A DNA stretch of 61,366 bases, filler included, from Hausera hauseri (taxonomy: Eukaryota): assembly GCA_046269625.1 (NCBI GenBank). It is 11 parts of 11 records of this genome, joined end to end, with 100 filler letters (N's around TTAATTAATTAA, not from the genome) between each part and the next. Parts side by side here need not be neighbours in the genome. Positions count along the whole stretch, not along the records: positions 4,191 to 9,339 come from JBJURY010322049.1; 10 more parts are not named here. The stretch is one strand, 5' to 3'. Positions 1 through 54,559 of this stretch are shown here, piece by piece. Position 1 is the stretch's first letter, and the number at the start of each line of letters is the position of its first letter. The translations under genes were made by a program, and so were the position numbers. The notes beneath the pieces are model-generated. The model saw nothing but the letters and a program-made list of their open reading frames with translations, had not been told where the DNA came from and ran no database searches.

Positions 1-3000
1 TTAATTGTGCTCCTCAAATAATTGGTTGATTTTTAGATGTGCAAACTTTACAGAGAATGCTTGGCTCAAATCCATGAACCTGAAAATTGCCACAGTATTA
101 TGATGAAATACTTTAGCCATATTTACAACAGGGTTCATTATTATATATGCCCTACATGTGAGGTAGTGTGTCAAACCAATTATGAAGACTTTTACAATGT
201 CCATAAACATCACTTGATTTCCTTCATCAAATCGAAAAAACCAATATTCAGTACCAATATGTTAATAATGACTTTCGTGCCAAAGGAAAATCAAAAATGC
301 AGTTCTTATGTGCAATACACAATCCTCAGAATTGCCGCAATACCATGAGGACACAAATTCAATAGGATCATCTATTATATCTGTCTAGGATATGAGGCTG
401 TATGTGATGGAGAATACATACAGTTTTATGAAGATCACAAACATCATTTGACTGATTTCACATAAAAGTCAAAGAAGTTCATCTTTAATGAACATAAGCC
501 AGTTGCACAGCTTGAAGTACTGCCGGATGCAGGACTAAAACGCGCATCAGGCCCATCAGACGCATCAGGCGTAGCGGCTCCATCAAATAGTCAAAGACAG
601 AGGCCAGTTAATGCTGCAGAATTAAAGAGGAAATGCCGCATATATATCATTGAAGCAACTGATCAAACAACCATCAAAGAGTTCCTGGAGTACACAGAGG
701 AAGAGTGAATTCTCCAGGATAACATAGCTGATCTCAAGACCCTTAAGGTTAATTTGAAACTTGAGGCCACATACGTCAATGTTGATGGCGAAGAGTCCAA
801 AGTGCCTTCAAGACTAGAAATAGACCCATTTTTGAGGCCACCAATATAGTAGAATGGCTGCATGAAGAGCATGCAACCTTGATCCGTGAAGCCGATGAGA
901 GCCAGAGTAAGAAGTGCGGATGGACTCTGGCAACCATCAAGAGATGGTTTGTGTATGTTCACAAGCATTCTCCCATGCGGGGTAGTTTATATATTCAGCT
1001 TCCGGAATGGATCGCTAATAAAAAAGCATGCATCAATGTCCTTAATAATGACAACATGTGTTTCATGTATGCCATTTTATGTAAACTCGTACGGCATCAA
1101 AAACATGCAGCAGATCGAGGTTGGCTATATAATGATCTGAAGCACAACTATGACTTCCAATGTATTAAGTTCCCACCATCTATAGATGAAGTAAAGAAGT
1201 TCAGTCGAATAAACAATATATCCATCAACATCATTGGATTGGATGCTGAGGAGAAATTCTATCCCTTGCAGATATATGATACTGAATTAGAAGATCATAG
1301 GGATCTGCTCCTACTAGACAATGGAGAAAAAAACATTATATTTGGATTAAGAACTTTGAGCATCTAGTCAGATCCCAAATTACGAAACACACAACAAGAA
1401 TCGAAATATGTAAACGATGCTTTTCCCATTTCAGTGGTGATACAGCAGTGGACAAGCTTGCAGAGCACAAAATTTACTGCAGCAACAATTACTGTGTAAG
1501 GCCAGAATTACCCAAGGAGGACTATATTGAATTCAAGGAGTTCGAGAAGAATATCAATGTCCCAATAGTTATCTATTGCGACTTTGGAGCTATTCTCCGG
1601 CCAGTTCACAGCTGCACTTCCAGTCCTCAACATAGCAGCACAAGGGCATACCAATATCATGAACTCTCATCGTATTGCATGTATGCCAAAGGCCTGGACA
1701 GTGAACCATTTCTATTCAGGGTTCCAGGCGCAGCAGCACATTTCATAAAACGACTTGAAGATATGGCTCATAAGCTTGAGAACATGCTTCAGCAACATAA
1801 GGATAATATGAGCATGTCGCGGAAAGAAGCTGAAGAATGGTGCCGGGCAACATGTTACTTGTGCGACAAGTCCTTCACCAAGTATAATCATAAAGTCAAG
1901 GATCATTGCCATTTTACAGGTGTATATCGGGGAGCAGCATGCAACAACTGCAATATGCGTTGCAAAACATGTATATATGTGCCTGTAGTGTTCCATAATC
2001 TCAGTGGCTATGCTTTCCATTTCATAGTCCGAGAATTAGACAACATTGATGGTAATATAGATGCGATCCCAAACAGTGAGAAAAAATACATCACTTTCAC
2101 CAAGCAAGTGGGCCGCATCAGACTTCGCTTCATAGGCAGTTTCCGTTTCGTGAGCTCGTCACTGGTCAATTAAATGAAGAACCTCCCTTCAGAAGAACAC
2201 AAGGAGACGAAGCGGTTCTTCCCTACTGCATTTGACCTCGTCAAGAGGAAAGGCGTGTTTCCTTATGACTGCATAACCTAATGGGGAAGACTGGATGAGA
2301 CCTTATTGCCGGACAAGAAGGACTTTTACAGTATCCTCTCTAATTGCCATATCAGTGATGTTGACTACCAGCATGTCCAGAACGTCTAACATACATTAAA
2401 ATGCAGAACATTAGGGGAATGCAGAGACATATACCTCAAGACGGATGTGCTTCTGCTGACAGATGTCTTTGAGAGCTTCAGGGATGCAACAATGAGACAT
2501 GCTTTGGATCCGGTTCATTTCTTTACGGATCCAGATGAGTTTGGCAGCAATGCTGAGATATACAGGTATTAGGCTGCAGATCATTAAGGATTACGATATG
2601 ATCCTTATGATCGAGAGAGGCATTAGAGACGAAATATGCCAAGCCATTCACCGGTATAGCGAGGACGATAACAAGTATATGGCCGAATACGACTCATCCA
2701 AGGAAACCTCATATATCATACTTGGATGCCAACAACTTGTATGGATGTGCCAGAAGCGTCCCATTGCCGTATGATAACTTCAAATGAGTCGAGAACCCTG
2801 AAAACATCCGTATATTAGACCTGGATCACGCTGGAGATACGAGATACATACTGGAGGTGGATATGGATTATCCTGCTTCCATCCACGCAAAGCATCAACA
2901 GCTGCCTTTCTTACCTGAGAGCAGGCCTCCGCCCATAAAAAGCATAGAAAGCTGCTATGTCATCTGGGTAATAGGGAGAGGTATGGACTTCGTACTACTA

Positions 3001-4090
3001 AGATCCACCGGACCCTATAGTTCAACCACTCCATGTGCCTGCAGTCATACATAGATCTTAATACGAAGCTGCGGACTAATGCCAAGAACAACTTTGAGAA
3101 AAACCAGTTCAAGCTTTACAACAACTCAGTCCTTGGCAAGACCATGGAGAATATCCGCAACAGGAGCAACATCGAACTGGTATGTGACTGGAATCGAGGA
3201 AGGAAGATTATTGCCAAGCCGAACTTCCACAGCAGAATCAGATATGTTAAGAACTTGGTCAGCATCCATATGCTGAAAACATCCTTGGTATTCAACAAGC
3301 CCATATGTGGGTATGGCAATCCTCGACCTGTCAAAGACCCTGATGTATCACTTCCACAACGACATCATGGTCCCCAAGTTTAAGTCTATGGAGCGGATGT
3401 ATATGGATACTGATCGTTTTATCTATCAGATCCATACAGTCTACATTTATAAGGACTTTGCCCAGTTGGCTCAACACATGGATACCTCGGATTATCCGAA
3501 GGATCATCCCAACAATTCAATTGCCAACAAAAAGGTCATTGGGCAATTCAAAAACGATGTGAATGGGGCAATAATATTAAGATTTGTAGCTCTCAGATCT
3601 AAAATGTATGCTCTAGACGTATGTGGCCAAATAAAGAAGCAGGCAAAAGGGGTTCAAAGGGCTACATTGGCCAAGAAGATTAGATTCAATGACTATGAGA
3701 GTTCTGCAGGAGCAAACACATCATATCAGAGATAAAACGGATCCAATCTATGTATCGTAACACAAACTGTAACCTTACAGAATAAAAGCCTAGATTGGAT
3801 GGACGACAAGAGGAGATCCTAAGCGATGGAATCCACACACTACCTTATGGACATGTGTCATTGTAGATATTGTTATACTTTGTTATTCTTTTGTTTAATA
3901 AATGTTGTATAGAAATATCGTGTTGTCTTCTTGATCAATAATGTGGAATATTGGATAAGGTCAAGAAAAACTAAGTAACTACTATATAGGATAAGGCCCA
4001 CTAATTTCATAATACATTTATTTAGTAACAATATAACTTTGACATAACGCTAAACACTTTTTATATGCACAATGTGAACCATGTTCACGA
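1..4090 (+). mobile_element. Decayed Polinton/Maverick (adintovirus-like) element fragment, copy 1
   Basis: Occupied by a protein-primed PolB pseudogene; colinear with copy 2 (19918-24523), including the 3' flank after PolB. Confidence 0.85.
37..3866 (+). pseudogene. Protein-primed family B DNA polymerase (pPolB) with an endonuclease-VII-like Zn finger insert; many stops and frameshifts
   Basis: Motifs RGSLYIQLPEWIANKKACINV, VIYCDF (ExoI), CYLC..KVKDHCHFTGVYRGAACNNCN, VFHNLSGY (ExoII), KGVFPYD, LDANNLYG, KLYNNSVLGK, YMDTD, KKQAKGV, DDKR, TLPYGH. Confidence 0.9.
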
Positions 4091-4190: not shown

Positions 4191-4612
4191 GAGCAAGATG
4201 TCAACTACGTCGAGTTGTAATTTTGAACCAATTTCTAAGAAATCATTTAGACACTTTCCCTTGTTCTTTGCAGCTGCGTCAAACACTATTCGATATTTTG
4301 TGGTATCACGATCGAACTTAACAACAGGAAAGTGTGGTAATAACCATTTCGTTTCCTTTTACTCTTCTTTCGATATTTTTTATGTACGACTTCTCCTCAT
4401 ATTCTTTAATAACTTTATAGTATTCCTCTTTTACTTTAATATCCTTATCTAACTTTTTTATTAGTAATTCCAGTCTTTTTTTCGCCATCCATGAAGAGTC
4501 AAAACCACTGACGTCTGGATGTTTCTCTTCCTTCCAGAGTAGCTTAACACAAAATCTATCTTTCTCATATTTTATTCCATTCGTTACTTTTTTTAATAAT
4601 TCAGTCTCTAAG

Positions 4613-5224
4613 CTATTTAACTCCGGTTTTTCCTGGAATCCTTGTTCCGCCTCCCATAGTCTGTTCCAATCCTCTCTTCACTTCATAGGTTCTTGTCCAG
4701 AATGTTCTAACGAAGTTGGTCCTTACTCTCTTTCTTTCATCTCCGATTACTCCAAGACATGTCCATCTAAGTGGGGTTAATCTGGCTATAGGATTGTTTA
4801 TTTTTCCTGCTATTTTCTTTATATACCTATGCAGGTGCATGTAGTTCGCGCCAATTATTCCATCAACCGATTTCGACGATTTTTGAACAGCGAACTTTAT
4901 TTCTCTCAAATGCGACCATTTGCTTTTCTCGACCGCCCAATTCACGGCCATCATTTTCCCAGTTGGATCATGAAGGACCAACGCTTCAAATGGGATGTTA
5001 GCCTTCCCGTTCTTACTTCGTAACTTCATTTTTACCCTCTCCATTTTCGATTTTGTTGTTCCTCCACCTACCACCATGACGGATACGTTTTCCAGACTAC
5101 CAACTAATTTTAATTGCTCTGGGACAGAACGTTTTACGAAGCATTCTGTACTCGCGTCATCTAACAACATACACACCTTTACTTTTCGCTCTCCATTTTC
5201 CAACCATACGTTTACAGTGCGCAA
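4613..5224 (-). pseudogene. BEL/Pao aspartic protease domain (DUF1758-like)
   Basis: LLDDASTECFV catalytic motif, WSHLREIKF, VDGIIGANY, PIARLTPLRWT. Confidence 0.85.
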
Positions 5225-5401
5225 TGCTATTTTATTTCCTGTCGGGATCTTTTCTGATCGTCAGGTCACGTAAGAGCTAACTTGGGCCTCCGTAACATCA
5301 CCTTCACATTCACCCTTTTCTTTCCTTAATTCCTCATCACCTTGCAAAGTATAAAATGTTCTTTCTTGTTTTTTGGATGTATTTTTCTTAGACGGCGAAT
5401 C

Positions 5402-5548
5402 ATGAGCATAACAACATTTTTCTCCATATTTTCAATTCCCTTTCACATGATACTTACAAACTTGCGTTTTACTGTTTCCCTCGTGAATATGCAGATATTT
5501 ACACTTATTTCCGAATTTGCAATTTCCGTTTTTCTCGAACTCCCAGCA
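5402..5548 (-). other. Two tandem C-x7-C-x5-C-x3-H (CCCH) zinc fingers in the Gag nucleocapsid position
   Basis: CWEFEKNGNCKFGNKCKYLH and CKYHVKGN*KYGEKCCYAH, where TGA at 5432-5434 occupies the second Cys position. Confidence 0.8.
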
Positions 5549-6715
5549 TATTTGGTTTTCGGTTTTGCTCATTGACTTAATACTATTATCCTTTTTTGTT
5601 TTATTTGGAATTGACGCCTCATTCCTGCTGGCATTTCTGTCTACATAAAAACTTCTTTGTGATTTTCTTTGAAATTCATGCTCTTTCGAAAGTGTATGAT
5701 TTTTATTATGAGCGAGAAATCGTTTTTCAACTGTCGTCTTATTTTCATCGTACGTCCGATTAGACTCATATTCTCTTCCTGGATTAAAGGTGTTTATACC
5801 TCTGATTCTTTTGATTGTATTTCTTGGGACACTTGCTTCCATCTCTACTCACAATTTTAACTCCTCAACTGTGCGATTTGACTTCTTTTCAGCAACATGT
5901 CTTTCCCATAATAATACTATGGACTCTGGGAACTTTTCCATTAGACTTTGGTACAACAGACCTCCACCTAATTCTTCCGTCCTCCCGAAATTTTGTAGTC
6001 TCACTGTTATGCCATCTAACAAAGCAACAAATCGATCTAGGCCTATGATGTCTTCTTCCTTGATTGATTTAAAACGCATCACTTCGGTCATAAAGGCGGC
6101 ATAACACCGTTGTTCTCCCCAATAATAAGAGTCAAGTTTTCCCATTGCAGCTTTATAGCCTTCTTGAGACAGGTCAAAGTTCTCAATTAATCTCTTCGGT
6201 TTTTCGTACAGGCATTGATTTAATTGCAATTGTTTGTAGATGTCAAACATTGACATCTTATGAACGCAGGTGTCAAACGTTGTCTTCCATTTACCATACT
6301 CTGTGACTATACCGCCAAACTTTGGGAGTTCTAACTTCTACAATTTCGGCAGTATGACCTTTGCCTTTATACCACTAACCGCACCTCTTGTTGTATTAAT
6401 TGCCGATTTGTTTTGCCTTAAGCTTCTTTCATAGATAACTGCGTTGGTCTTTTCGTTCTGCTCGTCTAATTTCTCTATTTCATTATCTAGTAATGTTACA
6501 TTCTCCTTCCTTTTTAATTTCCTGGCTGCGGTTGTCAATATACACAGTTCTTCTTGGACACTCGAAAAAACCTTCTCATAAATTTGATGGAATACGTTGT
6601 AATCATGTTCGTTTAAATTTACATCAATCAATCTTCTTCGAATCAAAGCCAATTTATTTATGAGTCTTTGTCGCTCGGCAATACGTTCTTCGAGTTCGTC
6701 TGCTGTTATTTCGCT

Positions 6716-6928
6716 TCCTCCTTTTGGCTAGAACGTTAATTGAAGTATTGTGCCGTTACTTAGGCTTTTCACTGCTTCATCGGTCCGTAGCGGCTTTCCG
6801 ACGTGTAATAGAATGAATTCCTCATTTATCCTCAAGTTTTTCTTTATATTCCCAATTAGATCCCAATATGACTGAGATTCAGTTAAGTCTACCACAGAAT
6901 TATGTCCGCCACAACGTATGATTACCTG
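6716..6928 (-). other. Ubiquitin-like domain ending in di-Gly, in frame upstream of BEL/Pao Gag
   Basis: QVIIRCGGHNSVVDL...FILLHVGKPLRTDEAVKSLSNGTILQLTF*PKGG; about 71 aa, resembling ubiquitin RLIFAGKQL...STLHLVLRLRGG. Confidence 0.7.
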
Positions 6929-8199
6929 TTTTCTTATTTCTCCAACTCTGTTTTCCGAAATCTTGTTTACCTCTTTTCCACTTATTCTTCCTATCTGATA
7001 CGGCAACTCTATTCCTCCTAATTCCCTATCTTCAAGAAGATTCGATATTTTTGAATTTGTACAATTAGTTTGTGCTTCTTCACTTAGCTTTTCAAACTGC
7101 TTCTCCACAACTTGAAGTTCCGGGCATCCAATGCTTTTTTGTAATTTGATCAATAATTTACGGCCACTTGCCTCAAACACGAGCCGTTTAGAACATGTTT
7201 CTTTGCGATCTGTTACAGGTGACCCTATCCGCTGAGGTTTATTCTCTATTTATTCAAAATCATAGACTCTCGATATATCTTCTAATTTTTTATCGCCTTC
7301 GGCGCAAGATTTCACGACTCTCCAATTTAGCGTCACCTCTGCAAAATAGTCACGGCGTTTCCTTTTATTCAATTCCCTACAGTCTCTTACCGTGCATATT
7401 GTGCAGAAGATTCTCGCTTTTGCTTCAACATTAAATCAGAATGAATAAGATCTGAAAACGAGGAGACGGACATACAGTATTTGTAAAAAAACTGCATTCT
7501 GTGGTTTGTGTCTGCGGATCACGGTGCAGAGCACAAACCACGCTCTGCTACCATAAAATGGAGGTTTTATATAGACGTTATGTAACGTGTCACCGTAAAT
7601 TAGAGATTTTATATGAAGTAAACATAGTGAATTATGCACATAAACCTCCAGATGAATGACAGGTTTGTCTCGGATATCACCTCTTGATATAATTCCTATC
7701 ATCTCTCCTCTGGGCACATACAAACTTTCTTTCAAGGTGTACGTTCCTTTACTTTTACTTGAAAAATATTGTATCAAACAACTGTTCAAACATAGACTCA
7801 TTACAAGGTTACGTATATTATCTACAATACAGCCTTTCTCTTCCATCGAATAACCGTATACGCACATACTCATTCTAAGACTATGTGTATCTTCCCTTGG
7901 TCCGAACATCATTAAATATGACTCAGTTCTTATTAGGCTCAATTTGCAAACCCATTTAAACCTCCAAATTCTCTTATTTAATGTATACCCATATGAAAAC
8001 ACATTAAATTGACTTATCCAAGCATACTCGGCTTTTGTTATCGCGGTATCTTTCCGCGGTGGAATGATTCCACCTTTAATTTGCTCCAAATCCAACACAC
8101 CGAATTTAACAACCATACAACTCCTCTCAACATCCGCGGGAACAAAAGGGAGATAATAACTATAATCCATAATATTTGTAGAACAACTTAACACATTAA

Positions 8200-10418: not shown

Positions 10419-11816
10419 TCAGGTTATTTTATCATACGGATCAATAGGGGTTTCCAATTCCCTTAGTTCCAATTCTGTAATGTTAGGACGCTTAGAATGA
10501 TAGTTTTTAGCAACTAACCGAAAAATCGCAATTAGTGTAATAAGAACAAACGTTGACAGTACAAAAATGGATACGATCGGTAAAGTGATCAATCTCATTG
10601 GTGCTTGTGTGGTGACTGGAATTGTGATTTCATCGCCTATATTTTCATATGTATGCGATTCTTCACGAATTTCATCTAAGGTACGCAATGTAATTGTTTG
10701 GTTTTGTTTATCCTCTGTATATATTTGTACTATGTAATCAGATTGCGGTTTTAGCAAACTGCATTCTATCTGATAAGTGCTTTTAGGTAATGTTACAATC
10801 TGATTATTATAGGTTGTTCGGCAACTTATGTGTATATCGTAAGTTTGTTCCTCCTCTACAAAGAACACAATTTTAGATCGATACGCCGAATATTTAATAG
10901 GCATGCTTCCTAATTCTCTTTTAGGCACACTGCTTGACGTAGCGGGTCCCATAATAGCACTAACTCGAGTAGTCGGCTTTTTAATGGTTGTTTCTACTGG
11001 AATCCTCCATATTCTATTCTTCGGATAGTAAGTCCGCAAATTTTTGCTCGGTTTATTCGGTCTTACTTCATATAAGTCGAATTTTATTTTGTATTCTTGG
11101 TTTACTGGTAACTTACAACATGGGCATTGCACACATTCATGAACAGAACAGTAATATATTCTCAGGGTTTTCCCATTCACAGCTTGGAAAATGATACTAA
11201 TTTCTTGACTAAAAGTTAATCCTGTTCGAGCATCTATTTAAATGCATTGTTTTTCCTCGTTTACCGAGATTCCTTTGATATTTTCATCTAATAACCTTAT
11301 ATCTGGGTTGGTGGACTGTAGCATTTCGTCGGGCTTCTTTTCGGATGGCCTGGACCAATGGGGAATTACCAACTGAACTTGTGGGTTTACGTCGTTATAG
11401 ACTTCTGATGAGTCTGGTAAGTATAGTTGATAAGTGAGGATGTAAACATGTTCGAAATCGACGTCGCAGCACTGGGTATAATCTCCGGGTTCAAAGTCAC
11501 AGTTTTTCACTTCTTTCGTTGTTACATCGCATAGGACAATTTGAAATCTTCCCAAATCGCGATGCAGTCTCCAAGTTTTAAATCCGACACACATAGCGTC
11601 TGGCGAAAAGTAATGAATTGTCATTGATTTTAACAATTTAGTGTCTTCTTGTTTTTGGATCTCTTCGACTCTTGGTTTCTTTTCCGTTTTAATAATTTTC
11701 GATCTTGATTCGCTCTTCCGAATCCCGTATATATCTCCTAGGGTAGTTTTATCGTTCCACCATTTAGTTTGTGTTCTCGGGATATAAAAAGCAATTAACG
11801 ATAATGCTAAGATTAT
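10419..11816 (-). pseudogene. Type I membrane protein with FN3-like ectodomain in the env position (element A)
   Basis: Same frame as the integrase C-terminus. Hydrophobic ISYV*IILALSLIAFY, two Cys modules (KNC..CC..Y, WSRPS), S/T/P stalk, FN3 tyrosine corner LKPQSDYIV, TM LPIVSIFVLSTFVLITLIAIF, tail ending IDPYDKIT. In-frame stops at 11817 and 11238. Confidence 0.75.
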
Positions 11817-14260
11817 CTAAACGTATGATATTGGTCTAGCAATTATTGAGGAAGTTTTCGTCTCACGTTGGCGTAAATTGTACCGTTTATTGGGCCGTAT
11901 CTCCGTGTTGACAACTCTTTGTTCTGATACGACTTCTTCCTTTCCATTCTTGTTAATGTATACTGTGGTTGGCGTAGCTCTGGTAACTTCGTACGGTCCT
12001 CGGCCTGTACGGGTCAATTTTAATGATGTGCCTTTCTGGCTACTGGGTAATGTATATAAACCCAATTTTCTTCTTCTAAATCATGCGGTTTCGTTTTCTT
12101 ATCATATTACTTTTCAAACTGTTCCTCATATTCTTGAGATAACTCCTTGGGGATTTCCCAACATTTTTGTAATCGCATCTGTAGCACTTCTGCAAAATTC
12201 TGTTCTAAATCTTCGGGCTTCACTGTGTATGGCGTCATTCCTAAGTCTGTAGGCAGCACGGCTTCACGTTTATACATGATAAAAATGGTGTAAATCCTGT
12301 TGCGTGATTCTGAGTGGTATTAATTGCAAATTGAGTTCGTTCTAAAAATTTTTCCCAATCTTTTTGGTCATTGGCTACTACTGTTGAGAGTATGCGTATG
12401 ACGGTTGCATTCATTCGTTCAACCATTCCATTACACTGTGGGTGATACGCGGTAGTTGTTAATCGTTCGACTTCAAATATCCTGGTAATCTTCTCGAAAA
12501 GTTTACTAGTAAAATTTCTTCCTCGATCCGTTAATATTTGGTCTGGTGGTTCAAATGGACAAATGATTCTTCTTACTACCGCTTCGGCCAATGTTTCTGC
12601 CTTTTGATCAATTAACATTATTAATTCGACACAATGAGTTAATAGATCAATACAAGTTAAGATATACTTATTGTTCTTGTGGGTCGTAGGAAGAGGCCCT
12701 CCGATATCCATTGACATGGCTTGCATATGCCTAGCCGACACATTGATTGGTTTTTATTCGGCCATGTAGTTTTTCGTCTTCTTTTGTTTAGTTGCACATA
12801 CTTCACAAGCTTTTACCCAATTCTTTACATCAATATAGATACTAGGCCAAAAGTATTTATTCAATATTCTTTCTAATGTTTTCTTCCAGGACATGTGTCC
12901 TGCTAAATATGAATCATGTTCCGACATTAGCACTTCGGTTTGTAAACCTTTTGGAATAACTATCAGTTTCCTTCCTTTCCGTTCGTAATATAAAATACCC
13001 TCATTGCTCTTGTCATTTAGGACGCAGTATTTTTGTCCATGTCTGTATAAATGTTTCTTTAATTGTCGTCCCTTTGGTATGATATCCTTTTTAGGAAATT
13101 CTATAATCTTCTGAATGACTTTCTTTTTTCTTTGTTCTGTGGAAATTTTAATTGCTTTATCCATCGTTAAGATGCGTTGGCGATATATTATTTCTTTAAG
13201 TTTACTTTTCTTCATTATCATGATTACGCTTGTTTTGGTCTTTAATCTTGATAGTGCATTGGCATATACATGTTTATTTCCTGGTTTATACTGGAATTCG
13301 ATATTGTATATAGAGATTTCTTTGATCCATCTGTTAAGTCTACATGTCAAGTTATTTGCTCGGATTTTTAAATTCGCGACGGTTTTGTGATCAGTGACAA
13401 TTATAATTTTCTGCCTGTATACGTAAACGTTGAAATGTCGAAGTGCTTCTTTTACGGCTACAGTTTCTAATTCGGTAACAGAATAATTTTTCTCGGCCTT
13501 CTTTAAAGAACGTCCTCCATAAGCAATTGGGTGTTCTAATTCTTCATCTCTTCTATGCGCTAATTCATATCCAATGCCTTCTTTACTGGCGTCTGTCTTG
13601 ATTATAAAGGGTAAGTTAAAGTATGGGTACCGTAAAACAGGTTCGCTTGTTAATATCTTCATCTCGTCGAAGGCTTTCTGTTCGACGTCTGACCATTTCA
13701 ATTTAATTCCTTTTTTAAGCAAGCGATATAAAGGTGCATTAATTTTTAAATTATCTGGCACATAGATGGCGTAATATCCGCAGAGTCCTAGCCAGTGCCT
13801 TAACTCTTTCTGGTTTTGTGGTTTCATGCAATCTGATTTTCTGTTTAATAACGATTTATCTGGTTTCAATCCTCCCTCTCTAACTATATGGCCAAGATAG
13901 GATACTGAATTCTGAGCCCATTTACATTTCTTTGGAATTAATTTCAATCCGGCTTGTTCCAAACGAATCAGCGTGTGTTCAATATCCTTTAAGTGTTCCT
14001 TTACTGTCTTTGACGCTATCATTACGTCATCCAAGTATGCAAAAGCATGATCCAGTCCCATTAGAATTCTATTCATCATTCTTGTAAAGATGGCTGGTCC
14101 GGTAGTAATACCGAATGGCATGACATTAAATTCATAGACGTTATCATGTGTCTTAAACGCCGTTTTTTATCTTTCTTCGTCCTTCATTTCTACTTGCCAA
14201 TATCCGAATTGTAAATCCAGAGTGGTAAACCATTTTGCTCCTGAGAGTCTGTCTAAAACC
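11817..14260 (-). pseudogene. pol: Gypsy pol (RT-RNase H-integrase-GPY)
   Basis: ORFs 12754-14121, 12241-12741 and 11817-12065 with canonical motifs, separated by stops and frameshifts. Confidence 0.92.
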
Positions 14261-24623: not shown

Positions 24624-24720
24624 GAATTTTTTAATCAAAAATCGAATTTTTTAATCAAAAATCGAATTTTTTAATCAAAAATCGAATTTTTTAATCAAAA
24701 ATCGAATTTTTTAATCAAAA
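24624..24720 (+). repeat. Control-region tandem repeat, 20-bp unit ATCGAATTTTTTAATCAAAA, about 5 copies (cut by contig end)
   Basis: Exact periodic repeat upstream of trnI. Confidence 0.92.
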
Positions 24721-24822
24721 TTGAAAAAACTTCTTTAAACACATCAGGACCCCCCGGAGGGTGAATTTTTAAATTTCCGATTTCCTCCATATTGTATAAA
24801 ATCAGGAAAGTTAAATAAACAA

Positions 24823-24886
24823 AGCGAAGTGCCTGAAAAAGGATCATTTTGATATAATGAATAATAAATAAAAAATTTCTTCGTTA
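24823..24886 (+). tRNA. trnI: mt tRNA-Ile (GAT)
   Basis: AGCGAAG/CTTCGTT acceptor stem, TGCCTGA D-arm, GAT anticodon. Confidence 0.85.
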
Positions 24887-24887
24887 A

Positions 24888-24958
24888 GTTGTGAAGAATA
24901 GAAATTAGTCTAAATCCAAAATAATCAAAATATTTTATGCATTTACAACACTTCACAA
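24888..24958 (-). tRNA. trnQ: mt tRNA-Gln (TTG)
   Basis: TTGTGAA/TTCACAA acceptor stem, TTG anticodon, position. Confidence 0.85.
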
Positions 24959-25026
24959 AAAGATAAGCTAATTATTAAAGCTGTCGGGCTCATAACCCGA
25001 AAATGAAACTAAAAATTCTCTTTTTA
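24957..25026 (+). tRNA. trnM: mt tRNA-Met (CAT)
   Basis: TAAGCTAA..AAGCT D-arm, CGGG-CTCATAA-CCCG anticodon arm. Confidence 0.9.
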
Positions 25027-25995
25027 ATTAAAATAAACATAAATACCAGATTATTTTTATTTAATTTAACTTTAACAAGAGCAAATCTCATAATTTTATC
25101 ATCAAATAATTGATTTTTTTCATGAATTATAATCGAACTATGTCTATTTTCAATTATTCCTGTCATCTCAACTAGAAAAAAAATAAGAAATCAGCTAATA
25201 AAGTTCTTCATTATCCAGAGAACTTCATCATCTCTAATATTAACCTCGTTAATTTTAAATTCATTATCAACAATTAACACAATTACAATAAGACTTTTAA
25301 TTCTGAGAACCTCCATAAAAATAGGAATGGCCCCCCTTCATAACTGAATAATCACTTTATTTTCATCATTATCATGAACAAGATGTTTTTTAATAGCAAC
25401 TATTCAAAAATTCCCACCATCAATTCTTTTTACTCAAATAATCCCAATTAAGTCATCCCTAATAATTTTATGTTCATCAATTGTAATTAGATGTTTCCTA
25501 TCAATTAAACAAACATTACTAAAAAAATTTATTTCAATTTCTTCTATTAATACTACTCCATGACTTATTATATCAATTTATATCAGCAAAAGGCTATTTC
25601 TAATTTATTCAATCACCTATTCATTAATTATACTTATAATAACAACAACCGCCGAAAAAAAAAACACTATTAGAATTAAACAAATAACATTCATATCAAT
25701 CAAAGAAAAACTAATAATTCAATTTTGCATATTCAGAATTATGGGATTACCTCCCACAACAGGATTTATCCCCAAACTAATTATTTTACAAACTGTAATT
25801 AAAATTAATTTCTTCATATCGATTATTATAATTATTTCATCCACTATTATAATATTATCATTCATAAAATTCTCCTCAATTAATTTTTCAATTAATTCAG
25901 AAAAAAAAAAAATATCAACAAAGCTAAAAACAGGAAATGAAGAAATCTTATTAAATAATACTTTATTATTTTCAGCTCTACTTACAATAATTTAA
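25027..25995 (+). CDS. nad2: NADH dehydrogenase subunit 2
   Basis: ATT start after trnM; KFFIIQ, KMGMAPLHNW, MGLPPTTGFIPK; TAA. Confidence 0.93.
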
Positions 25996-26007
25996 TTAAT
26001 CGTAAGG

Positions 26008-26074
26008 AAGGATTTAGGTTAAATCAAAAACTCTTAGCCTTCAAAGTTAAAATTATCTTTAAAAATAAGCCTTA
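26008..26074 (+). tRNA. trnW: mt tRNA-Trp (TCA)
   Basis: TTAGC-CTTCAAA-GTTAA anticodon arm. Confidence 0.85.
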
Positions 26075-26138
26075 AATCTAAATCCTACAAAGAACCCTTT
26101 AAACTTGCAATTTAAAATCACATAATGAATATTAGACT
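26074..26138 (-). tRNA. trnC: mt tRNA-Cys (GCA)
   Basis: TTAAA-TTGCAAG-TTTAA arm on minus strand. Confidence 0.8.
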
Positions 26139-26141
26139 AAA

Positions 26142-26208
26142 TGATGAAAGATAAATTGAATATCATATAAGAATTTACAATTCTAAGCCTTTAATCGGCC
26201 ATCCCAAC
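26142..26208 (-). tRNA. trnY: mt tRNA-Tyr (GTA)
   Basis: TAGAA-TTGTAAA-TTCT arm; abuts cox1 ATG. Confidence 0.85.
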
Positions 26209-27744
<1,536 letters not shown>

Positions 27745-27746
27745 GA

Positions 27747-27810
27747 TTCAATGTGGCAGAATAGTGCTATGAACTTAAAATTCATATATAAAGGAAACCT
27801 TTTTTTGAAA
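27747..27810 (+). tRNA. trnL2: mt tRNA-Leu (TAA)
   Basis: TGGCAGA D-arm, ATGAA-CTTAAAA-TTCAT; lies between cox1 and cox2. Confidence 0.88.
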
Positions 27811-28486
27811 ATTAACTCATGAAACAAAATCAACTGCATAAACAGTACAAGACCTACAATAGAACAATTAATTTTCATACACGATCACACAATAATTCTA
27901 TCCATCATAATTAGATCAATAACTCTATTCATTATAATAAAATTAATAACAAATAAACTGTCAAATAAAATATCTACAGGAAATGAATCAATTGAAATTA
28001 TTTGAACTTCCATTCCAGCCCTAATCACCCTGATTATTGCCTTACCATCCCTCAAAATCCTTTACCTAATAGAAGAAATTATTAATCCATCACTATCAAT
28101 CAAAACCATAGGACATCAATGATATTGATCCTATGAATATTCCGACTTAAAAAAGAAAATTGAATTTGAATCATTCATTAATAAACAAGAAAACCCAAGC
28201 AAATTTCGTTTACTAGATGTTGATAATCGAACTATTTTACCCTCAATAACCCAAATTCGCATATTAATTTCATCATCAGATGTAATCCATTCATGAACTA
28301 TTCAACCCTTGGGAATCAAAATAGACGCTATCCCAGGACGAATTAATCAATCAAGTATAACTATTAAAAATGTAGGAATTATATTTGGTCAATGCTCAGA
28401 AATCTGCGGAACAGAACATAGATCTATACCAATTGTAGTAGAAAGTATTAAAATAAAATCATTCATTAAATGAATAAAAATATTTT
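27811..28486 (+). CDS. cox2: Cytochrome c oxidase subunit 2 (incomplete T stop)
   Basis: [37 protein letters not shown]. Confidence 0.96.
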
Positions 28487-28558
28487 CACTAAGTGGCCGA
28501 AAGGAAGCTATGGTCTCTTAAACCAATAAATAGTAAATTTACAAATTACTCTTAGTGA
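28487..28558 (+). tRNA. trnK: mt tRNA-Lys (CTT)
   Basis: CACTAAG/CTTAGTG acceptor stem, TGGT-CTCTTAA-ACCA arm. Confidence 0.9.
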
Positions 28559-28565
28559 AACCCAA

Positions 28566-28630
28566 TGAAAAGTTAGTTTAAAAAAAACATTTAAATGTCA
28601 AATAAAAAATAACTGCAAATTACTTTTCCA
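28566..28630 (+). tRNA. trnD: mt tRNA-Asp (GTC)
   Basis: TAGTTT..AAAC D-arm, ATGTCAA loop. Confidence 0.82.
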
Positions 28631-28737
28631 TACCCCAAATATCCCCAATAATATGAACCTATCTTATATTAATTATAACAACCACACTAATTACAATAGA
28701 AGTTAATAAACACTTCTCAATAAAAAAAAAATGATAA
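28630..28737 (+). CDS. atp8: ATP synthase subunit 8 (short, 35 aa)
   Basis: MPQMSPMMW start; ATGATAA overlap with atp6. Confidence 0.9.
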
Positions 28738-29381
28738 CTAACTTATTTAGATCCTTCGACCCATCATCATCAACCTCTTCATTAATAAACTGAGTATCAA
28801 TCTTAGCAGTATTATTAATCACACCAAAGAAAATATCCATATTAAAGTCACGATGACTAGTAATAGAAGATCAAATCTCAAAAAAACTAGTAAAAGAATT
28901 CAAAAGAATTACCCCAAACAAACAGATTCTTCTAAAAACAACATCGATATTTCTAATAATTTTAACAATAAACATTTTCAGAATTTTCCCGTATACATTT
29001 ACTCCAACCAGACATTTAGCAATTACCCTATCAATAGCATTACCAACATGAATTATAAGAATTATATTCATAATAATTAAAAAAACAAATGTATTTTTAT
29101 CCCACCTTCTCCCCTTAGGTTCACCTCCTATTTTAATACCATTCTTAATTCTTATTGAAACAACCGGAATTTTAATACGACCCCTATCTCTGTCAATCCG
29201 ACTAATAGCAAACCTAACAGCAGGACATCTAATTATAATTCTTTTAGGAACTAATAAAGAAATAATTTCAATTTTTATTCTACCAATTCAAGCAATATTT
29301 ATATCATTCGAATTAAGAATTGCTATAATTCAAGCATACGTATTTTCAACAATTAGAACCTTATACTCAAAAGAAAATTAA
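28731..29381 (+). CDS. atp6: ATP synthase subunit 6
   Basis: MMTNLFSSFDP, SHLLPLGSP, RPLSLSIRLMANLTAGHL, IQAYVF. Confidence 0.95.
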
Positions 29382-29384
29382 CTT

Positions 29385-30164
29385 ATGAAAAATCATCCAT
29401 TTCATTTAGTTTCAAAGAGACCATGACCAGTTTTATCTTCAGTTAGAACAATAATCTTAGTTACAGGCTTAACTTCATGACTTCATAAAATAAATATACT
29501 AATTATAAATATAGGACTCTTATCCACATCATTAATTATGTTTCAATGATGACGAGACATCTCACGAGAATCAACCCTTCAAGGCAACCACACAAATAAA
29601 GTAATTAAAGGAATAAAAATGGGAATAATCCTTTTCATTACATCAGAAGTTATATTTTTCTTGTCATTTTTCTGAGCATTCTTCCATTCAAGTTTATCTC
29701 CATCAATTTCAATCGGAATATTGTGACCACCAAAAACAATTAAACCCTTTAACCCAACCGAAATTCCCCTCCTAAATACAATCATTTTATTAACCTCAGG
29801 AGCTAGAATTACCTGAGCACATCATAGATTGCTAACAAATAAAATAAATCAAACCATAAAAGCAACGATTATCACAATTTTCCTAGGAATTTATTTCTCG
29901 CTTCTTCAATTAATCGAGTATAAACAATCTATATTTACAATCGCAGATTCAACCTACGGATCCACCTTTTTTATTACAACAGGATTTCACGGAATACATG
30001 TATTAATCGGAACAACTTTCATCTTAATCAACTCAGTCTGAATTAAAAAAATACACATCAACAACATTAACCATTTAAGATTTGAAACAGCCGCATGATA
30101 TTGACACTTCGTAGACGTAATTTGATTATTATTATACACCTCAATTTACTGATGAGGAAAATAA
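29385..30164 (+). CDS. cox3: Cytochrome c oxidase subunit 3
   Basis: HPFHLVS.SPWP, QWWRD, TGFHGMHV, WYWHFVDVIW. Confidence 0.96.
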
Positions 30165-30227
30165 ATTTCTCTTAGTATATTTAGTACACTTAACTTCCAA
30201 TTAAAAGGTTTTTCAGAAAAGAGAAAA
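30165..30227 (+). tRNA. trnG: mt tRNA-Gly (TCC)
   Basis: TTAA-CTTCCAA-TTAA arm. Confidence 0.85.
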
Positions 30228-30242
30228 GCCAAAAAAAAGGCT

Positions 30243-30593
30243 ATAAAAACAATTATTAAATTAATTCTATCAATTTCAGTAATCTTAATATTTATACTTA
30301 CCGCCACACAAATAATATCAAAAAAAACAAAGCAAGACATAAATAAATCATCACCATTCGAATGCGGATTTACACAAATATCTTCACCACGAAAATCATT
30401 TTCTATTCAATTCTTTTATATCGCACTAATTTTTCTTATTTTTGACGTAGAACTATCAATTTTAATACCAATAATTTTTTTCAACCTTATTTCAATAAAA
30501 GAATGAACAATTACCAGAACAATTATTGTTACAATACTTATTCTAGGATTAGCAGCAGAATGAAATAAAGGACTAATTGAATGAACAAAATAA
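30243..30593 (+). CDS. nad3: NADH dehydrogenase subunit 3
   Basis: KSSPFECGF, FLIFDVE, EWNKGLIEW. Confidence 0.95.
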
Positions 30594-30596
30594 ATA

Positions 30597-30663
30597 AAGG
30601 AATGTAGTTGAAAGAAAAATAACATTTACCCTGCAAGTAAAAATTGTAATTAATCCATTCTTA
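30597..30663 (+). tRNA. trnA: mt tRNA-Ala (TGC)
   Basis: TTTAC-CCTGCAA-GTAAA arm. Confidence 0.85.
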
Positions 30664-30719
30664 AGTGAATAGTAAAAATTAGTTTCGACCTAAGAAAAGG
30701 ATTTATAATCCACTCACTA
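30664..30719 (+). tRNA. trnR: mt tRNA-Arg (TCG), short
   Basis: AGTGA../..TCACT acceptor stem, TTAG-TTTCGAC-CTAA arm. Confidence 0.8.
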
Positions 30720-30726
30720 AAACAAA

Positions 30727-30789
30727 TTAGGAAAAAAAAATATTTACTGTTAATAAATAAAAGATAATTAAAAAAATATCCTCCTAAAA
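30727..30789 (+). tRNA. trnN: mt tRNA-Asn (GTT)
   Basis: TTAGGA/TCCTAA acceptor stem, ATTTA-CTGTTAA-TAAAT arm. Confidence 0.8.
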
Positions 30790-30844
30790 GAGTTTAAAAA
30801 ATTAGCTGCTAACTAAAAAAAAGCGAAAACATCGCTAAACTCTC
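30789..30844 (+). tRNA. trnS1: mt tRNA-Ser (GCT), D-armless
   Basis: AGAGTTT/AAACTCT acceptor stem, TTAG-CTGCTAA-CTAA arm. Confidence 0.85.
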
Positions 30845-30845
30845 A

Positions 30846-30914
30846 GTTTTACATAGTTTAAAAACTAAAAAACAATGTATTTTCAATACATAAATATGAA
30901 ATATTTGTAAAACG
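30846..30914 (+). tRNA. trnE: mt tRNA-Glu (TTC)
   Basis: GTTTTAC/GTAAAAC acceptor stem, ATGTA-TTTTCAA-TACAT arm. Confidence 0.87.
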
Positions 30915-30980
30915 TCCAAAAATGAAAAACCACTTCCCCAACATTTTCAATGTTAAACTCTTTAAATAAGCTAAATGAAC
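30913..30980 (-). tRNA. trnF: mt tRNA-Phe (GAA)
   Basis: TAGCTT..AGAGT D-arm, AACA-TTGAAAA-TGTT arm. Confidence 0.85.
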
Positions 30981-32601
30981 AAAAAAAAAATAAAACAAAT
31001 CAAAAAAGAAAAGAAACGAAAAAAATCATAAAAGAAAAAAAATAAATATAAACAAAAGAATTAAAATAAGAACCTAGTCAAATTGAAAGACCACGTAAAC
31101 CCCCAGAAACATAATATTCCATCCAAGTATATTCAATATAATCAATAAATAGAAAAAAAAAATAAACCTTCGAAGAAATAAACCCCAAGGAAAAATAGTT
31201 TATATTTAAAACAGAACTCACTATATCATAAAAATAACCAGAAAAAAAAAAGTTTTTAAAGTAAAAAAAGTAAAACCCCAAAATTAACAAAAATATATAA
31301 AAAAAAAAAGGAAACAACTTCAAATAAAAATCAACAACAAAAATATATAAATCCTCAAACATTCAAAATAAAAAAGAACCAAACATTAATCTACCTAAAC
31401 CCAAAATAACAACTGAAAAATTAATAAAACTAAAACAATAAAAATTCAACATACAAAAAAAATAAACCCTTCCAAAGAAAATATATAAACATAAACGAAT
31501 TCTATAAATTAAAGTAAAACCTAAGCCAACAAAAAAAAAAAAGAAAGTAAATAAATTTATTTCACTCAAAATTAATATTTCAATAACAAAATCCCTAGAA
31601 TAAAACCCACAAAAAAAGGGTAAACCACATAAACTTAATAAACCAACAAGAAAAAATGATCTAACAAAAGGAAAACAAAAAATAAAACAACCTATATAAC
31701 GAATATCCTGACATCCACCAATACAATGAATATAATATCCAGAACACAAAAAAAGAAGAGACTTAAACACAGCATGAACCAATAAATGAATAAAAGACAG
31801 GTCTATCAACCCCAAAGAAAGACTAAAAAATATAAAACCAAGCTGACTCAAAGTAGAAAAAGCAATTACCCTCCTAAGATCATTCTCAAAGCAAGCTCTT
31901 AAACCAGACAAAAAAATAGTTAATAAAGAAATAAAAACTAAAAAAAAAGAAAAGAAACTAGAAAAAAAAAAATCAAAACGAATTAATAAATAAACACCTG
32001 AAGTTACAAGAGTCGATGAATGAACTAAAGAAGAAACAGGAGTAGGAGCCGCTATAGCAACAGGAAGTCAACTACAGAAAGGAAACTGAGCTCTCCTAGT
32101 CAAGCAAGAAACTAAAACAAAAAGATAAACAACTAACAAATCTATGTCAAAAAAATCAACATAAAAAATAAAATGAAAAGAACCCCTATTAAATATCCAA
32201 AATAAACCAAAAATTAAAAAAATATCACCTAAACGATTAACAAAAATAGTTGTAAAACCCGAACTCAAAGAAACCGAATTCTGATAATAAACAACCAAAC
32301 AAAACGAAATAACACCTAATCCATCCCAACCCAAAATAATAAAAAATAAATCAGGAGACATAATAAGGAAAATTATACTTAAAATAAAAAGATAAACCAA
32401 AAAGTAAAATCGACTTAATCTTAAATCACCCCACATATAATCTAAGCTATAAATATAAACACAACCAGAAATTAAAAAAACGAAAGAAATAAAAATTAAA
32501 GACAACCAATCAAAATAAAAAAAAAAAGAAAAAAAAAATGAATTAATAAAAAAAAAAACTCACTCAAAAACCAAAACAAGATCAACAATATAAAAATAAA
32601 C

Positions 32602-32651
<50 letters not shown>

Positions 32652-32684
32652 AAAAAAAAAAACGAAACTCAAAATAAAACTCAC
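30981..32684 (-). CDS. nad5: NADH dehydrogenase subunit 5 (start uncertain: GTG 32684 needs a shift in the A46 run; GTG 32691 is in frame but overlaps trnH)
   Basis: LGWDGLG, NRLGD, SAQFPF.SWLP.AMAAPTPVSSLVHSSTLV, AFSTLSQLG, HAVFKSLLF; incomplete T stop. Confidence 0.93.
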
Positions 32685-32745
32685 TATTCACCCACAAAAG
32701 ATCTACAGCACCACAAGCCAATGTTTTTAAATAAACTAAATGAAT
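32685..32745 (-). tRNA. trnH: mt tRNA-His (GTG)
   Basis: ATTCATT/GGTGAAT acceptor stem, TTGTGG loop; lies between nad4 and nad5. Confidence 0.8.
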
Positions 32746-32749
32746 AAAC

Positions 32750-33820
32750 CTAAAAAAAGTAAAACAAATTAAGACCAATAAAATATACAGGAAATAAATG
32801 AAAAAATAAAACTATGAACTCATAAACCCTCACATTAATAAAACCAAATAAACCACCATTTAAACCATGAAAAGAAAAAGAAAAAAAAAATAAACTATAA
32901 ACAGCAGAAAAAAATAAGCCCATAAAAACCCCAAAAAATCTAAAAAAGCTTCAACTTAAAGTAGAAAAAACAATTATAACCTCAGAAAATATATTAACAC
33001 TCAGAGGGAAAGATAAATTTCTAACAGATAAAACAAAACCAAACAAACCTAAAGAAGGACAACAAGTTAATAAACCACGAATAACAAAAAAACTACGAGT
33101 TCCAAAACGATCATACAACAACCCAATAAAATAAAATATACCTGAAGAAACTAACCCATGAGAAATTATTATTAAAACAGAACCAAAAATTCCCACCCTC
33201 ATTAAACTAAACAGCCCACAAATTACCAAGCCCATATGACTAACAGAAGAATAAGCAATTAAAATCTTTAAATCTCTCTGAACTAAACAAACAATCCCCA
33301 TAAAAAAAAAAGTAAACAAACCAACTCTAAAAAAAAACCAACTAAGACTTAAAAAAAAATCAATTAAAAAATCAATTAAACGAAAAACTCCATAACCACC
33401 CAATTTAAGTATAACCCCAGCCAAAATTATAGATCCACCAACAGGAGCTTCCACATGAGCCTTAGGCAATCACAAATGAAAAAATATTACAGGAAACCTA
33501 ACTAAAAAAGCAAATAAAAGAAAAATTCCAACAATTTTATCCTCAATATTATAAGTAACAACATATCTAAACCCACCCAAATTATAATCACAAATAAATA
33601 AAAAAACTATTAAAGGTATAGAAGCAAATCCAGTATAAAAAAATATATAAAACCCAGCACTTAATCGCTCAGGCTGATATCCCCAACCAAAAATTATTAA
33701 AACAATAGGAATTAAAGAAACTTCATACATAAAATAAAAATAAATCAAATCAAGAGTTACAAAACCAGAAATTAAAATCAACAAAACAATTAAAGATAAA
33801 AAATTAAAGAAAAGTCTTTA
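32750..33820 (-). CDS. nad4: NADH dehydrogenase subunit 4, 5'-truncated by a junction to non-mitochondrial DNA
   Basis: GWGYQPERL, HLWLPKAHVEAP, KLGGYG, IAYSSVSHMG; TAG at 32750-32752. Confidence 0.93.
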
Positions 33821-34507
33821 AAAAAAATCCCAGACAGGGCAAATCTAAATGAACTACGAAGGCACAGATGTTTTGGCAATGTCTAAACTTCACAACAATT
33901 ACTGCTGCGTCTGATCACCATGTCAGAGCTGCTCACAGGATGTGTCCCGTCACATGTTTGCAGAGGGGACGCCTCACGGTGAGGAGGCGTTTCAAATCAG
34001 CTTTGGATCCAGTCAGCTTTAAAAGCTGGTTGACAATTTGGGTTTCCTTCCTGAAGAGGTAATAAATTATAGATGCATTGATGCTTGTTCAGCAAATTGA
34101 GGTGTTTGACTTTTAAAATTGTTCTTTAAAAAGCCGTAAATCCCTGATACCAAGGAATCTAAATGATCACTTTAATCAAATCTGTGAGAAACCTCTTATT
34201 TTAGCTGTTTAGGTGAAGATATGGTTTTTAATTTCCCTTTTTGTTTTACAGAAACACTTAAGCCGTTAGTTTCCTGCTTGTTGAAAAGGTGAGTTTATTG
34301 TGGTGAAGTGGTTTCATTGATGCGTATGAACAGTGTAGTGTGACAGTTTTGTGCAGCTTTAAAGAGTCCTGTCTCACACAATTCAAATCTTATCAACTAA
34401 TTTAAAGGTGCACCCTCTACTGGACCCCCCATTCTGATAAAATGATCCTTTATTGTTTAAACTGTGTTTTCATTGCAGGTCCTTCTTGTTCGATCATGGC
34501 TCGCGGC
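33821..34507 (+). other. Nuclear-type spliced sequence: 37-nt exon (34252-34288) and an exon from 34479 with ATG GCT CGC GGC (MARG...)
   Basis: Polypyrimidine ..TTTTACAG|exon|GTGAGT ... TTTTCATTGCAG|; composition unlike mtDNA. Too short to name the gene. Confidence 0.5.
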
Positions 34508-52480: not shown

Positions 52481-53299
52481 TTGTGTTTTTGTATTGTTGA
52501 GAATCTGGAGAAGGACAAACCTTTTTCCAATTCGTTTTTATTTGGCATGGATATCGGGTATATTCGTATCTCATATTCAGGATGAGGAATATTTTCTCAT
52601 CTGATTACCTCGATATGAATTATTGAATGTGGTCCGCCGTTTGTGCGAAGCAATAGAGTGACATTTGTATAAAACTGTTGGTCCAAATGAATAGTTTGAA
52701 ATTTTGGAAGTTCGAGTATATCTGTATATCCCTTGGTATAGGTTCGACACTTAAGTTGGAGGGTTTCATTGACTGTTGATATATAGACATCAGTGGTACG
52801 ATTTGAAAGGTCAATAAGATCAGATAGCTTTCTTGAGGCATTCGGTAGTTTTATAAGTAGGGCACTTCTTTGAGATATGGTATGTCCTTTCAGATTGTTG
52901 GGAATTAGTGATGCATTGGCATAATATCGATAGTCTTTCTGTATTGTCGTATTCAGATTTGTGACGATGTTGAAATAAAAAGATTTGGGTCGTTGGACAA
53001 CCTCGGAACCTTGTTGGACTGAAAATATGAACATCAATAAGAAAAATGTAATTTTTCTGTTTAAGATAATGGAAATAATATATTGGTTGGTCGCAGGGGA
53101 TTTTGCGGTTTTAGTTTTTAAGTAGGTTGTTAGAAATTTTACAACCTTGTTTTTTATGTACGTACATGAATATACGATTACATCATTTAGCGGACGGGTT
53201 TGCCGCTTAGGGTCGGTTGGCTTTTCAGCTGACCGATTTTGTATAGATGGGCACATTTGTTGATTATTATTGTCAGATATTTCGATCTGGCGTTCAGTA

Positions 53300-54545
53300 A
53301 AGGGCGCGTCTATGGGATCTATTTGGGAATCTTCCCTTAAAAGTTTTAACTGGTTCAATATTTCTCTTGTCCTGCGAGATCGCCGTCTTATCTTAGAATA
53401 ACAAATTATTAATGGCACTAGTATGGCCAATAATACCATAAATATACATAAAGCAACTATTATCCAGAAATACTTATCTGAGTTATTTTTATAATTTTGC
53501 GTTGTTATTATTCATACAATTTTCGTAGTTATCGCAGATATTTGTTTTAGTGTTTTTTCCAACCGGTATATTGTTTGTAAGATCTGTCCCTCTTCATTCA
53601 ATTCTGTTATAATGACTTTATAATTAGTATCAGCTTTAAAAAGTATACAGGCCGATATGGGTTCTTCTGGTGTAATGATTCCTTCACTAATCATTCTGTT
53701 ATAAAGAGAACATTCAAATTTCACATTGGTGTTTCGTAGGTTTGATACAGTAATGATAAGAGAATCTGATGTCGGCTGTATGGTTATATCTAAATCTTTT
53801 ACAATTTTAGATTGAATTTGAAATGGTGAACTGGTTATTATACTTTGTACTGGCCGTGAGGTAGATAATAATGGTTTTGTTGGAGTTGTTATCATTATTG
53901 ATTGAGATTTCTCTATTATTTCTGGTCCGTCTGACCACTTTGACCATGTGTAACCGTTAATAGTTGTTCGGTAAATTATTTGATACAATCTATCAAATGG
54001 AAAGGGACAACAAAAATATGGTTTTTGGTAATCTATTCTACAATTTTTTATAATATCGGTTTCATTTTTGATATAATATTCTACAGTATAATGTCTAGTT
54101 ATTGGGACTTCTGTTTCAGCTGTTGCACATGGTCCATTTCTCATGATTTTAGTATAAAATGAGACAAGAAAATATGGCTGATTGTAATAATAAATCATGT
54201 TAGGGTATGATAAATACGTTCTGTATGTCTGACCTCTTCTTCCCATAGCATATTGAATCCTATAGGATACTCCAAACATAAGTCCACAATAAGTGTGAGT
54301 TGAGTGGCCATAATACAGATCACAATATTCTGGTGTTGCTTTATACAGAGAAGGTACTTTGGATATAAATGTGTATATATTCACCGTACGTTAAATATCG
54401 ATTGGCCATAATTTTTACACATGGGTATCGTCCAACTTGGACAGCTTTATATTGTACAGTGGTATCTTCGGTAGGATCTTGAGCCGATATACAAGTTACT
54501 AAGTTTAACATTATAAACGTTACCATTAATAATAAGTTAGGGTTT
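53300..54545 (-). pseudogene. Type I membrane protein with FN3-like ectodomain and WSKWS motif in the env position (element B)
   Basis: Signal LLLMVTFIMLNLVTCISA-QD in the integrase frame; Cys modules; GYTWSKWSDGP; stalk; FKADTNYKV; TM FWIIVALCIFMVLLAILVPLIICY followed by KIRRRSRR; one frameshift and one stop. Confidence 0.78.
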
Positions 54546-54559
54546 CCGGTTCTTATCTT

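Follow-up and report, generated by a model that had tools for sequence, protein, structure and literature searches.

We identified a lineage of BEL/Pao-type retrotransposons in which a leader and a ubiquitin or ubiquitin-like (Ubl) domain ending in Gly-Gly are encoded directly ahead of Gag, and by analogy with known ubiquitin fusions we consider it likely, with a probability of roughly 65%, that host deubiquitinases release Gag at the Gly-Gly. The architecture, the fold of the domain, the kept Gly-Gly with its fixed spacing, the single clade and the open frames of relatives were established directly.

The element in the window

The window is a stretch of 61,366 nucleotides from Hausera hauseri, made of short contigs chained by spacers, and the element lies on the minus strand of the contig at 4191-9339. 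Read in the direction of the element, a primer-binding-site-like motif seen in the sequence (TGGTAGCAGAG, 7553-7543), which we take to match initiator tRNA-Met at its 3' end, precedes a leader of about 105 codons that is open in translation in the Gag frame (6935-7249). There is no in-frame ATG between 7560 and 6700, and this leader could not be aligned to the 160-residue leader of the related protein P0003. A diverged Ubl domain of beta-grasp type follows (6716-6934), assigned from its fold and its alignment to P0003 and split by a stop codon at 6730-6728. The initial annotation had described a ~71-aa Ubl-like sequence in the Gag frame, and translation of 6716-6928 on the minus strand returned it exactly as given. 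Its di-glycine was also located correctly: the codons at 6721-6716, the predicted cleavage site, are followed by Ser and run on as SEITADELEERIAER in the same frame. This Gly-Gly shares an alignment column with the ubiquitin Gly-Gly of P0006, P0008, P0030 and P0031.

Downstream lie an N-terminal helical region (6341-6715, its helical character judged from the sequence) and the Gag core, DUF1759 (PF03564), at 5882-6319 (E 7.9e-14, 52.3 bits against a cut-off of 25.4), which bore out the proposal of a BEL/Pao Gag in frame behind the Gly-Gly. Tandem CCCH zinc fingers occupy the nucleocapsid position (5402-5548, zf-CCCH E 1.7e-6), the second of them broken by a stop at 5434. They are followed by a putative aspartic-protease region with the motif LLDDAST (4616-5260), where Asp_protease_2 scored under its cut-off at E 0.011, and, past frameshifts, by a conserved Pol stretch from right before the RT domain (4194-4358). 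This stretch is 52% identical over 54 aa to P0065, a protein that carries RVT_1 and Peptidase_A17. The contig ends at 4191, ahead of the RT core, and we therefore filed the element as BEL/Pao-type on its DUF1759 Gag and its pre-RT stretch. Its likeness to BEL/Pao (Belpaoviridae) elements comprises the DUF1759 core, a putative protease region behind Gag and a BEL-type pre-RT stretch; CCHC knuckles are typical of BEL/Pao Gag, and the classification does not rest on them. The 3' end of the element lies beyond the contig, no direct repeats were found within the window besides the contig spacers, and ARAGORN found no tRNA genes.

The Gag frame of this copy contains five stops (6730, 6340, 5851, 5434 and 5263). 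The initial annotation was right that a stop, at 6730-6728, hides the Gly-Gly from an open-frame display, but that TAG is only one of the five. The window copy is a pseudogene, a decayed retrotransposon copy, and for this reason the cleavage by a host isopeptidase that had been suggested for it does not apply to this copy itself. At 6726, the -4 position, it also differs from the tail typical of the family.

Related DNA is present in two public sequencing runs, X1 and X2. Nine X1 contigs, which account for 119 of 125.5 depth units, have a codon other than the window's stop, and at the -4 codon nine X1 contigs, all 94.6 depth units, differ as well; two longer X1 contigs span the junction between domain and Gag. 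The same comparison showed no variants at the Gly-Gly codons, but we give this no weight, as most contigs break off close to them. More diverged copies in X2, seen as single-contig loose ends, still run into the L-K-G-G tail when read by eye. P0003 comprises one open frame of a 160-aa leader, the Ubl, LKGG-Ser and Gag, with 55% identity to the window frame over 468 columns, and the P0004 gene call begins inside the tail and covers Gag, a pair of CCCH fingers and the protease. The TAG, whose fixation in all copies would have spoken against translation of the Ubl with Gag, is thus not fixed, since the nine X1 contigs differ from it and both P0003 and P0004 are open there. A search for related loci in metagenome contigs and viral contigs gave no confirmed loci.

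Several observations concern the untranslated part of the element and the rest of the window. Contig depth in X1 and X2 is very high at 7459-7630, around the primer-binding-site-like motif and the presumed LTR end; the joints there go back about 47 bases, and this may be a separate short repeat. Just past that motif, other copies cover 7287-7458 far better than they cover the leader or the Ubl, and they show indels at 7309-7325; the stretch may be a conserved untranslated signal. Elsewhere, 24624-34507 reads as a mitochondrial contig, open under table 5 (invertebrate), with what we take to be nad2, cox1, cox2, atp6, cox3, nad5 and nad4 in an arthropod-like order; a small invertebrate is therefore the likely source of the DNA. 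Broken frames at 786-3735 (+) look like those of a Polinton-type DNA polymerase B. Two regions on the minus strand, 10422-14166 and 52600-56785, are what we take to be Gypsy-like RT/integrase regions; behind each lie additional frames that end in a transmembrane-like stretch and may be env-like.

Relatives with ubiquitin ahead of Gag

A protein search of 1.84 billion representatives gave 816 matches with E no higher than 0.001, and we worked with the best 150. Five of eight proteins picked for a Pfam scan (P0006, P0008, P0030, P0031 and P0033) carry PF00240 above the cut-off together with DUF1759, and P0006 is identical to ubiquitin at 61 of 76 residues (80%, counted by eye). A ubiquitin profile run over 154 proteins, including the best 150 of the 816, added only P0022, which is N-terminally short. 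Together with the window, P0003 and P0004, these proteins make up nine rows that reach the junction. Conservation of the Gly-Gly, proposed at the outset as a check, could be followed across them: it is kept in eight of the nine, 111-120 residues ahead of the Gag core. In the ninth, P0033, Glu-Gly stands 102 residues ahead of the Gag core; its ubiquitin core is disturbed, and this row may be decayed. The residue after Gly-Gly is Ser (six rows), Gly or Met, and never Pro. The tail of P0006 and P0008 reads LRLRGG, exactly as ubiquitin ends. The domain lies in a single open frame with Gag in P0003, P0006, P0008, P0030 and P0031, and is interrupted in the window copy.

Among P0006, P0008 and P0031 the ubiquitin is 54-67% identical, against 14-21% for the helical region and 20-36% for the Gag core. 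Judged from these sequences, such constraint may mean either that selection has long kept the domain similar to ubiquitin or that host ubiquitin mRNA has renewed it time and again. Every ubiquitin copy is distinct from host ubiquitin and from the other copies. The junction relatives are each a single-member cluster and a single-contig metagenome protein. In P0031, the leader before the ubiquitin contains an HSP90 fragment at residues 76-141 (E 1e-11), a captured host piece or a chimera. The Gag frames of P0004 and P0011 continue into host-like coiled-coil domains (CFAP58 at residues 920-993 and CC149 at residues 371-529, respectively), perhaps through insertion into genes or gene-calling chimeras.

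In a tree of the Gag core only, comprising 152 rows after P0151 (too short) and P0001 (duplicate) were dropped, all nine junction rows fell inside one clade of 15 rows with an SH-aLRT of 99. The same clade was recovered at 97/96, with a bootstrap not fully settled, in a tree of 38 rows picked by hand (14 from the clade and 24 from outside, long outside branches included). The tree spans 175 columns, and several clade members sit on long branches. The remaining six clade rows start too late to show the junction, with no more than 82 residues ahead of the core. Two wider searches bear on the extent of the clade. An Atlas search with the ubiquitin and Gag of P0006 found only DUF1759 clusters (0.80-0.81), a lead at most, and a profile search started from nine Gag sequences scored 7999 candidates but recovered nothing beyond two of the sequences put in, so that the clade was not widened.

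Outside the clade, the rows long enough to show a ubiquitin before Gag have none. Among the 138 outside rows in the best 150 of 816 matches, none of the 63 with at least 130 residues upstream of the core carries one, nor does any of the 37 with at least 200. These rows are gene calls without DNA, and an upstream ubiquitin could therefore sit behind an internal Met. Two outside rows within the same best 150 lack the domain although an L-x-G-G occurs in the same zone. Of the outside rows among these matches, 21 start with Met 100-150 residues before the core, at about the location of the clade's Gly-Gly, and their commonest second residue is Ser (6 of 21).

The window's subclade also departs from other BEL/Pao elements in its zinc fingers. 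Five clade rows have at least 120 residues past the core, and three of these (the window, P0004 and P0154) have CCCH fingers without CCHC; of the other two, P0030 has CCHC and one has neither. P0004 and P0154 each carry two intact CCCH fingers. Among outside rows with enough downstream sequence, again within the best 150 of 816 matches, 55 of 57 have CCHC knuckles, and two outside rows also fit a loose CCCH pattern. The three rows with CCCH fingers group together, with support of 100/98, in a subclade where tandem CCCH fingers stand in place of the usual CCHC knuckles.

Divergence and fold of the window domain

By sequence the window domain is hard to place. It matched nothing in Pfam above the cut-off (best SAMP2 at E 0.03 and OTU1_UBXL at E 0.1), and neither it nor the P0003 domain scored above the Pfam cut-off for PF00240. 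For lack of that match we class the window domain as a Ubl and not as ubiquitin, from which it is too diverged to score as such. One sequence search of the PDB with the domain gave no matches, and in another ISG15 came up at a non-significant E of about 1. On a ubiquitin profile built from four ubiquitin sequences of the clade itself, 35 of 1000 shuffles scored as well as the window domain and 10 of 1000 as well as that of P0003. HHalign aligned the diverged domain to the clade ubiquitins with a probability of 74.6%. The Atlas neighbours of the domain (scores 0.90-0.91) were unnamed in 28 of the 30 clusters listed, and the other two carry Rad60-SLD or ubiquitin on a minority of their members.

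Structure prediction was more informative. The beta-grasp fold expected in the initial annotation appeared weakly for the window domain alone, whose model had a pLDDT of 52 with the elements in beta-grasp order; its listed Foldseek matches were all beta-grasp or known to contain one, none at E <0.001. The expectation was strongly borne out for the P0003 domain, modelled at a pLDDT of 87 from a two-row alignment of P0003 and the window that included no ubiquitin. Its last three residues were of low confidence. Foldseek returned 74 matches to this model at E up to 0.001, with ubiquitin and NEDD8 on top (E 2e-4, TM 0.74), and VIA superposed it on ubiquitin with a Z of 9.8 and an rmsd of 2.4 over 71 residues. 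ISG15, SUMO, PB1 and RBD domains lay within 1 Z unit, so the fold does not single out ubiquitin. FUBI, at a VIA Z of 8.8 against 9.8, was tied with ubiquitin, a comparison that speaks neither for nor against descent of the domain from FUBI. Marginal by sequence, the domain is established by its modelled fold and by the relatives with true ubiquitin at the same junction.

The window subclade reverses the pattern of constraint seen among the ubiquitin-bearing relatives. Between the window and P0003 the domain is 36% identical and the Gag core 73%, with K-G-G-Ser unchanged. The N-terminal helical region of the window is 57% identical to P0003 and P0004 and 14-23% to the other ubiquitin-bearing rows, and the window domain is 22-26% identical to those of P0006, P0008, P0030, P0031 and P0033. 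Since the window and P0003 domains are marginal on the ubiquitin profile, host enzymes may no longer recognise them. If cleavage occurred only with near-canonical ubiquitin, then the domain of this subclade would be a relic, or a folding module that stays on Gag, and the low identity to the other clade domains, the missing PF00240 match and the faster divergence of the domain than of the Gag core would all fit. We regard this as unlikely, as K-G-G-Ser is the same in the window, P0003 and P0004 although the leader is unalignable, and the tail of the diverged X2 contig ends, by eye, is kept as well.

Proposed release of Gag and comparison with known systems

Host deubiquitinases cleave linear ubiquitin fusions unless Pro comes next, and a protein is stabilised by Ser, Gly or Met at its N-terminus. 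In the mechanism that we favour, release of Gag by host deubiquitinases, the ancestor of the clade would have captured a host ubiquitin coding sequence before gag. The precursor would be cut after Gly-Gly during or soon after translation, before particle assembly and before the element's own protease becomes active. After this cut Gag would begin at Ser, Gly or Met, close to the point at which the relatives without ubiquitin start translation, and a leader-Ubl product would be freed whose leader would be disposable and could evolve freely. The window-subclade domain has drifted to about 24% identity with the ubiquitin-like rows yet keeps its fold and L-K-G-G, and its cleavage would therefore call for a tolerant enzyme of the USP type, like that of FUBI.

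The ubiquitin might instead stay on Gag uncut and serve as an integral tag, recruiting ESCRT factors or routing surplus Gag to the proteasome. Uncleavable ubiquitin on retroviral Gag can substitute for a late domain, and at the N-terminus of a protein it marks that protein for degradation. Such a tag would require loss of the Gly-Gly. P0033, which has lost the first Gly, would suit it, but that row has the disturbed core and may be decayed, and the other eight rows retain Gly-Gly with a non-proline residue next; we consider an uncut tag quite improbable. It is very improbable that the element's own aspartic protease cuts near the site and that Gly-Gly is a mere flexible linker. The element does carry a putative protease region, and the low-confidence last residues of the P0003 model are as in a flexible tail; retropepsins, however, favour hydrophobic sites, and the P0006 and P0008 tails reproduce the ubiquitin C-terminus exactly. 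Chance insertion beside host ubiquitin genes or assembly chimerism, which the single-contig origin of the relatives and the chimeric-looking parts of P0004, P0011 and P0031 might suggest, can be set aside as having hardly any likelihood, because nine rows share the junction column, the spacing and one clade, each ubiquitin copy differs from the host's and from the others, and read contigs span the junction.

Beyond release of Gag by host deubiquitinases, a more far-reaching proposal, possible but doubtful, is that the clade outsources its first Gag maturation step to these enzymes, that the leader-ubiquitin, made once per Gag, enters the host ubiquitin system by conjugation or as a decoy, and that one subclade has a private, FUBI-like Ubl matched to a narrow set of USPs. 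If the private-Ubl reading were true, particle formation would be tied to cells or compartments with that USP enzyme.

Both halves of the architecture have known counterparts. In BVDV CP Rit, a ribosomal peptide and a truncated ubiquitin are inserted, host hydrolases cut and NS3 is freed (PMC8310069). The likeness extends to a captured ubiquitin within a polyprotein, foreign residues upstream and a host cut to an authentic N-terminus (same source). Pestivirus ubiquitin insertions have many independent origins and are recurrent, recent insertions before NS3 in single strains (PMC13517609). Unlike these, the Gag domain marks a whole, deeply diverged clade, precedes a structural protein and has drifted to a distinct Ubl.

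The ribosomal ubiquitin fusions and FUBI-eS30 share the order Ub or Ubl, Gly-Gly and cargo, and show that divergence of a Ubl need not prevent specific USPs from cutting it (PMC8354635, PMC10611586). Cleavage of FUBI-eS30 needs Gly-Gly and USP36 (PMC8354635); FUBI is 36% identical to ubiquitin, and its V40 and P47 help limit it to USP16 and USP36 (PMC10611586). The window and P0003 domains are nonpolar at ubiquitin Arg42 and have Pro at Gln49, matching V40 and P47 of FUBI (PMC10611586). These residues hint at a FUBI-like restriction, although as a sequence likeness this is suggestive only. There are also differences: the ribosomal fusions and FUBI are host genes without a leader before the Ubl, whereas the retrotransposon clade has one, and the residue before Gly-Gly is nonpolar in FUBI and Lys in the window-subclade domains.

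Burro giant Gypsy elements and Helentrons with OTU proteases are likewise mobile elements with host ubiquitin-system domains; these are MATH, BIR and OTU, and the available part of PMC6431247 mentions no ubiquitin moiety before Gag. In the literature searched, which included the accessible parts of PMC6431247 and PMC9289625 and lay outside Repbase, Dfam, GyDB, subscription journals and supplements, we found no fusion of ubiquitin to a retrotransposon Gag. BEL/Pao-type elements are already known, as is the use of ubiquitin as a processing signal that the host cuts. For the combination of both as a clade-wide Gag architecture, that search found no prior report.

LTR retrotransposons are thought to process Gag by their own protease within the particle. 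Annotation pipelines would likely call genes of the kind described here host ubiquitin, or overlook the domain. The clade provides a natural series, from a ubiquitin with 80% identity down to a Ubl that can hardly be recognised yet has the tail unchanged, which could help to define the minimal requirements of a deubiquitinase. With ubiquitin before Gag, an earlier cut would fall to a host enzyme, creating a host control point. The arrangement would also let the element carry a disposable, fast-evolving leader, a processing route unusual for an LTR retrotransposon.
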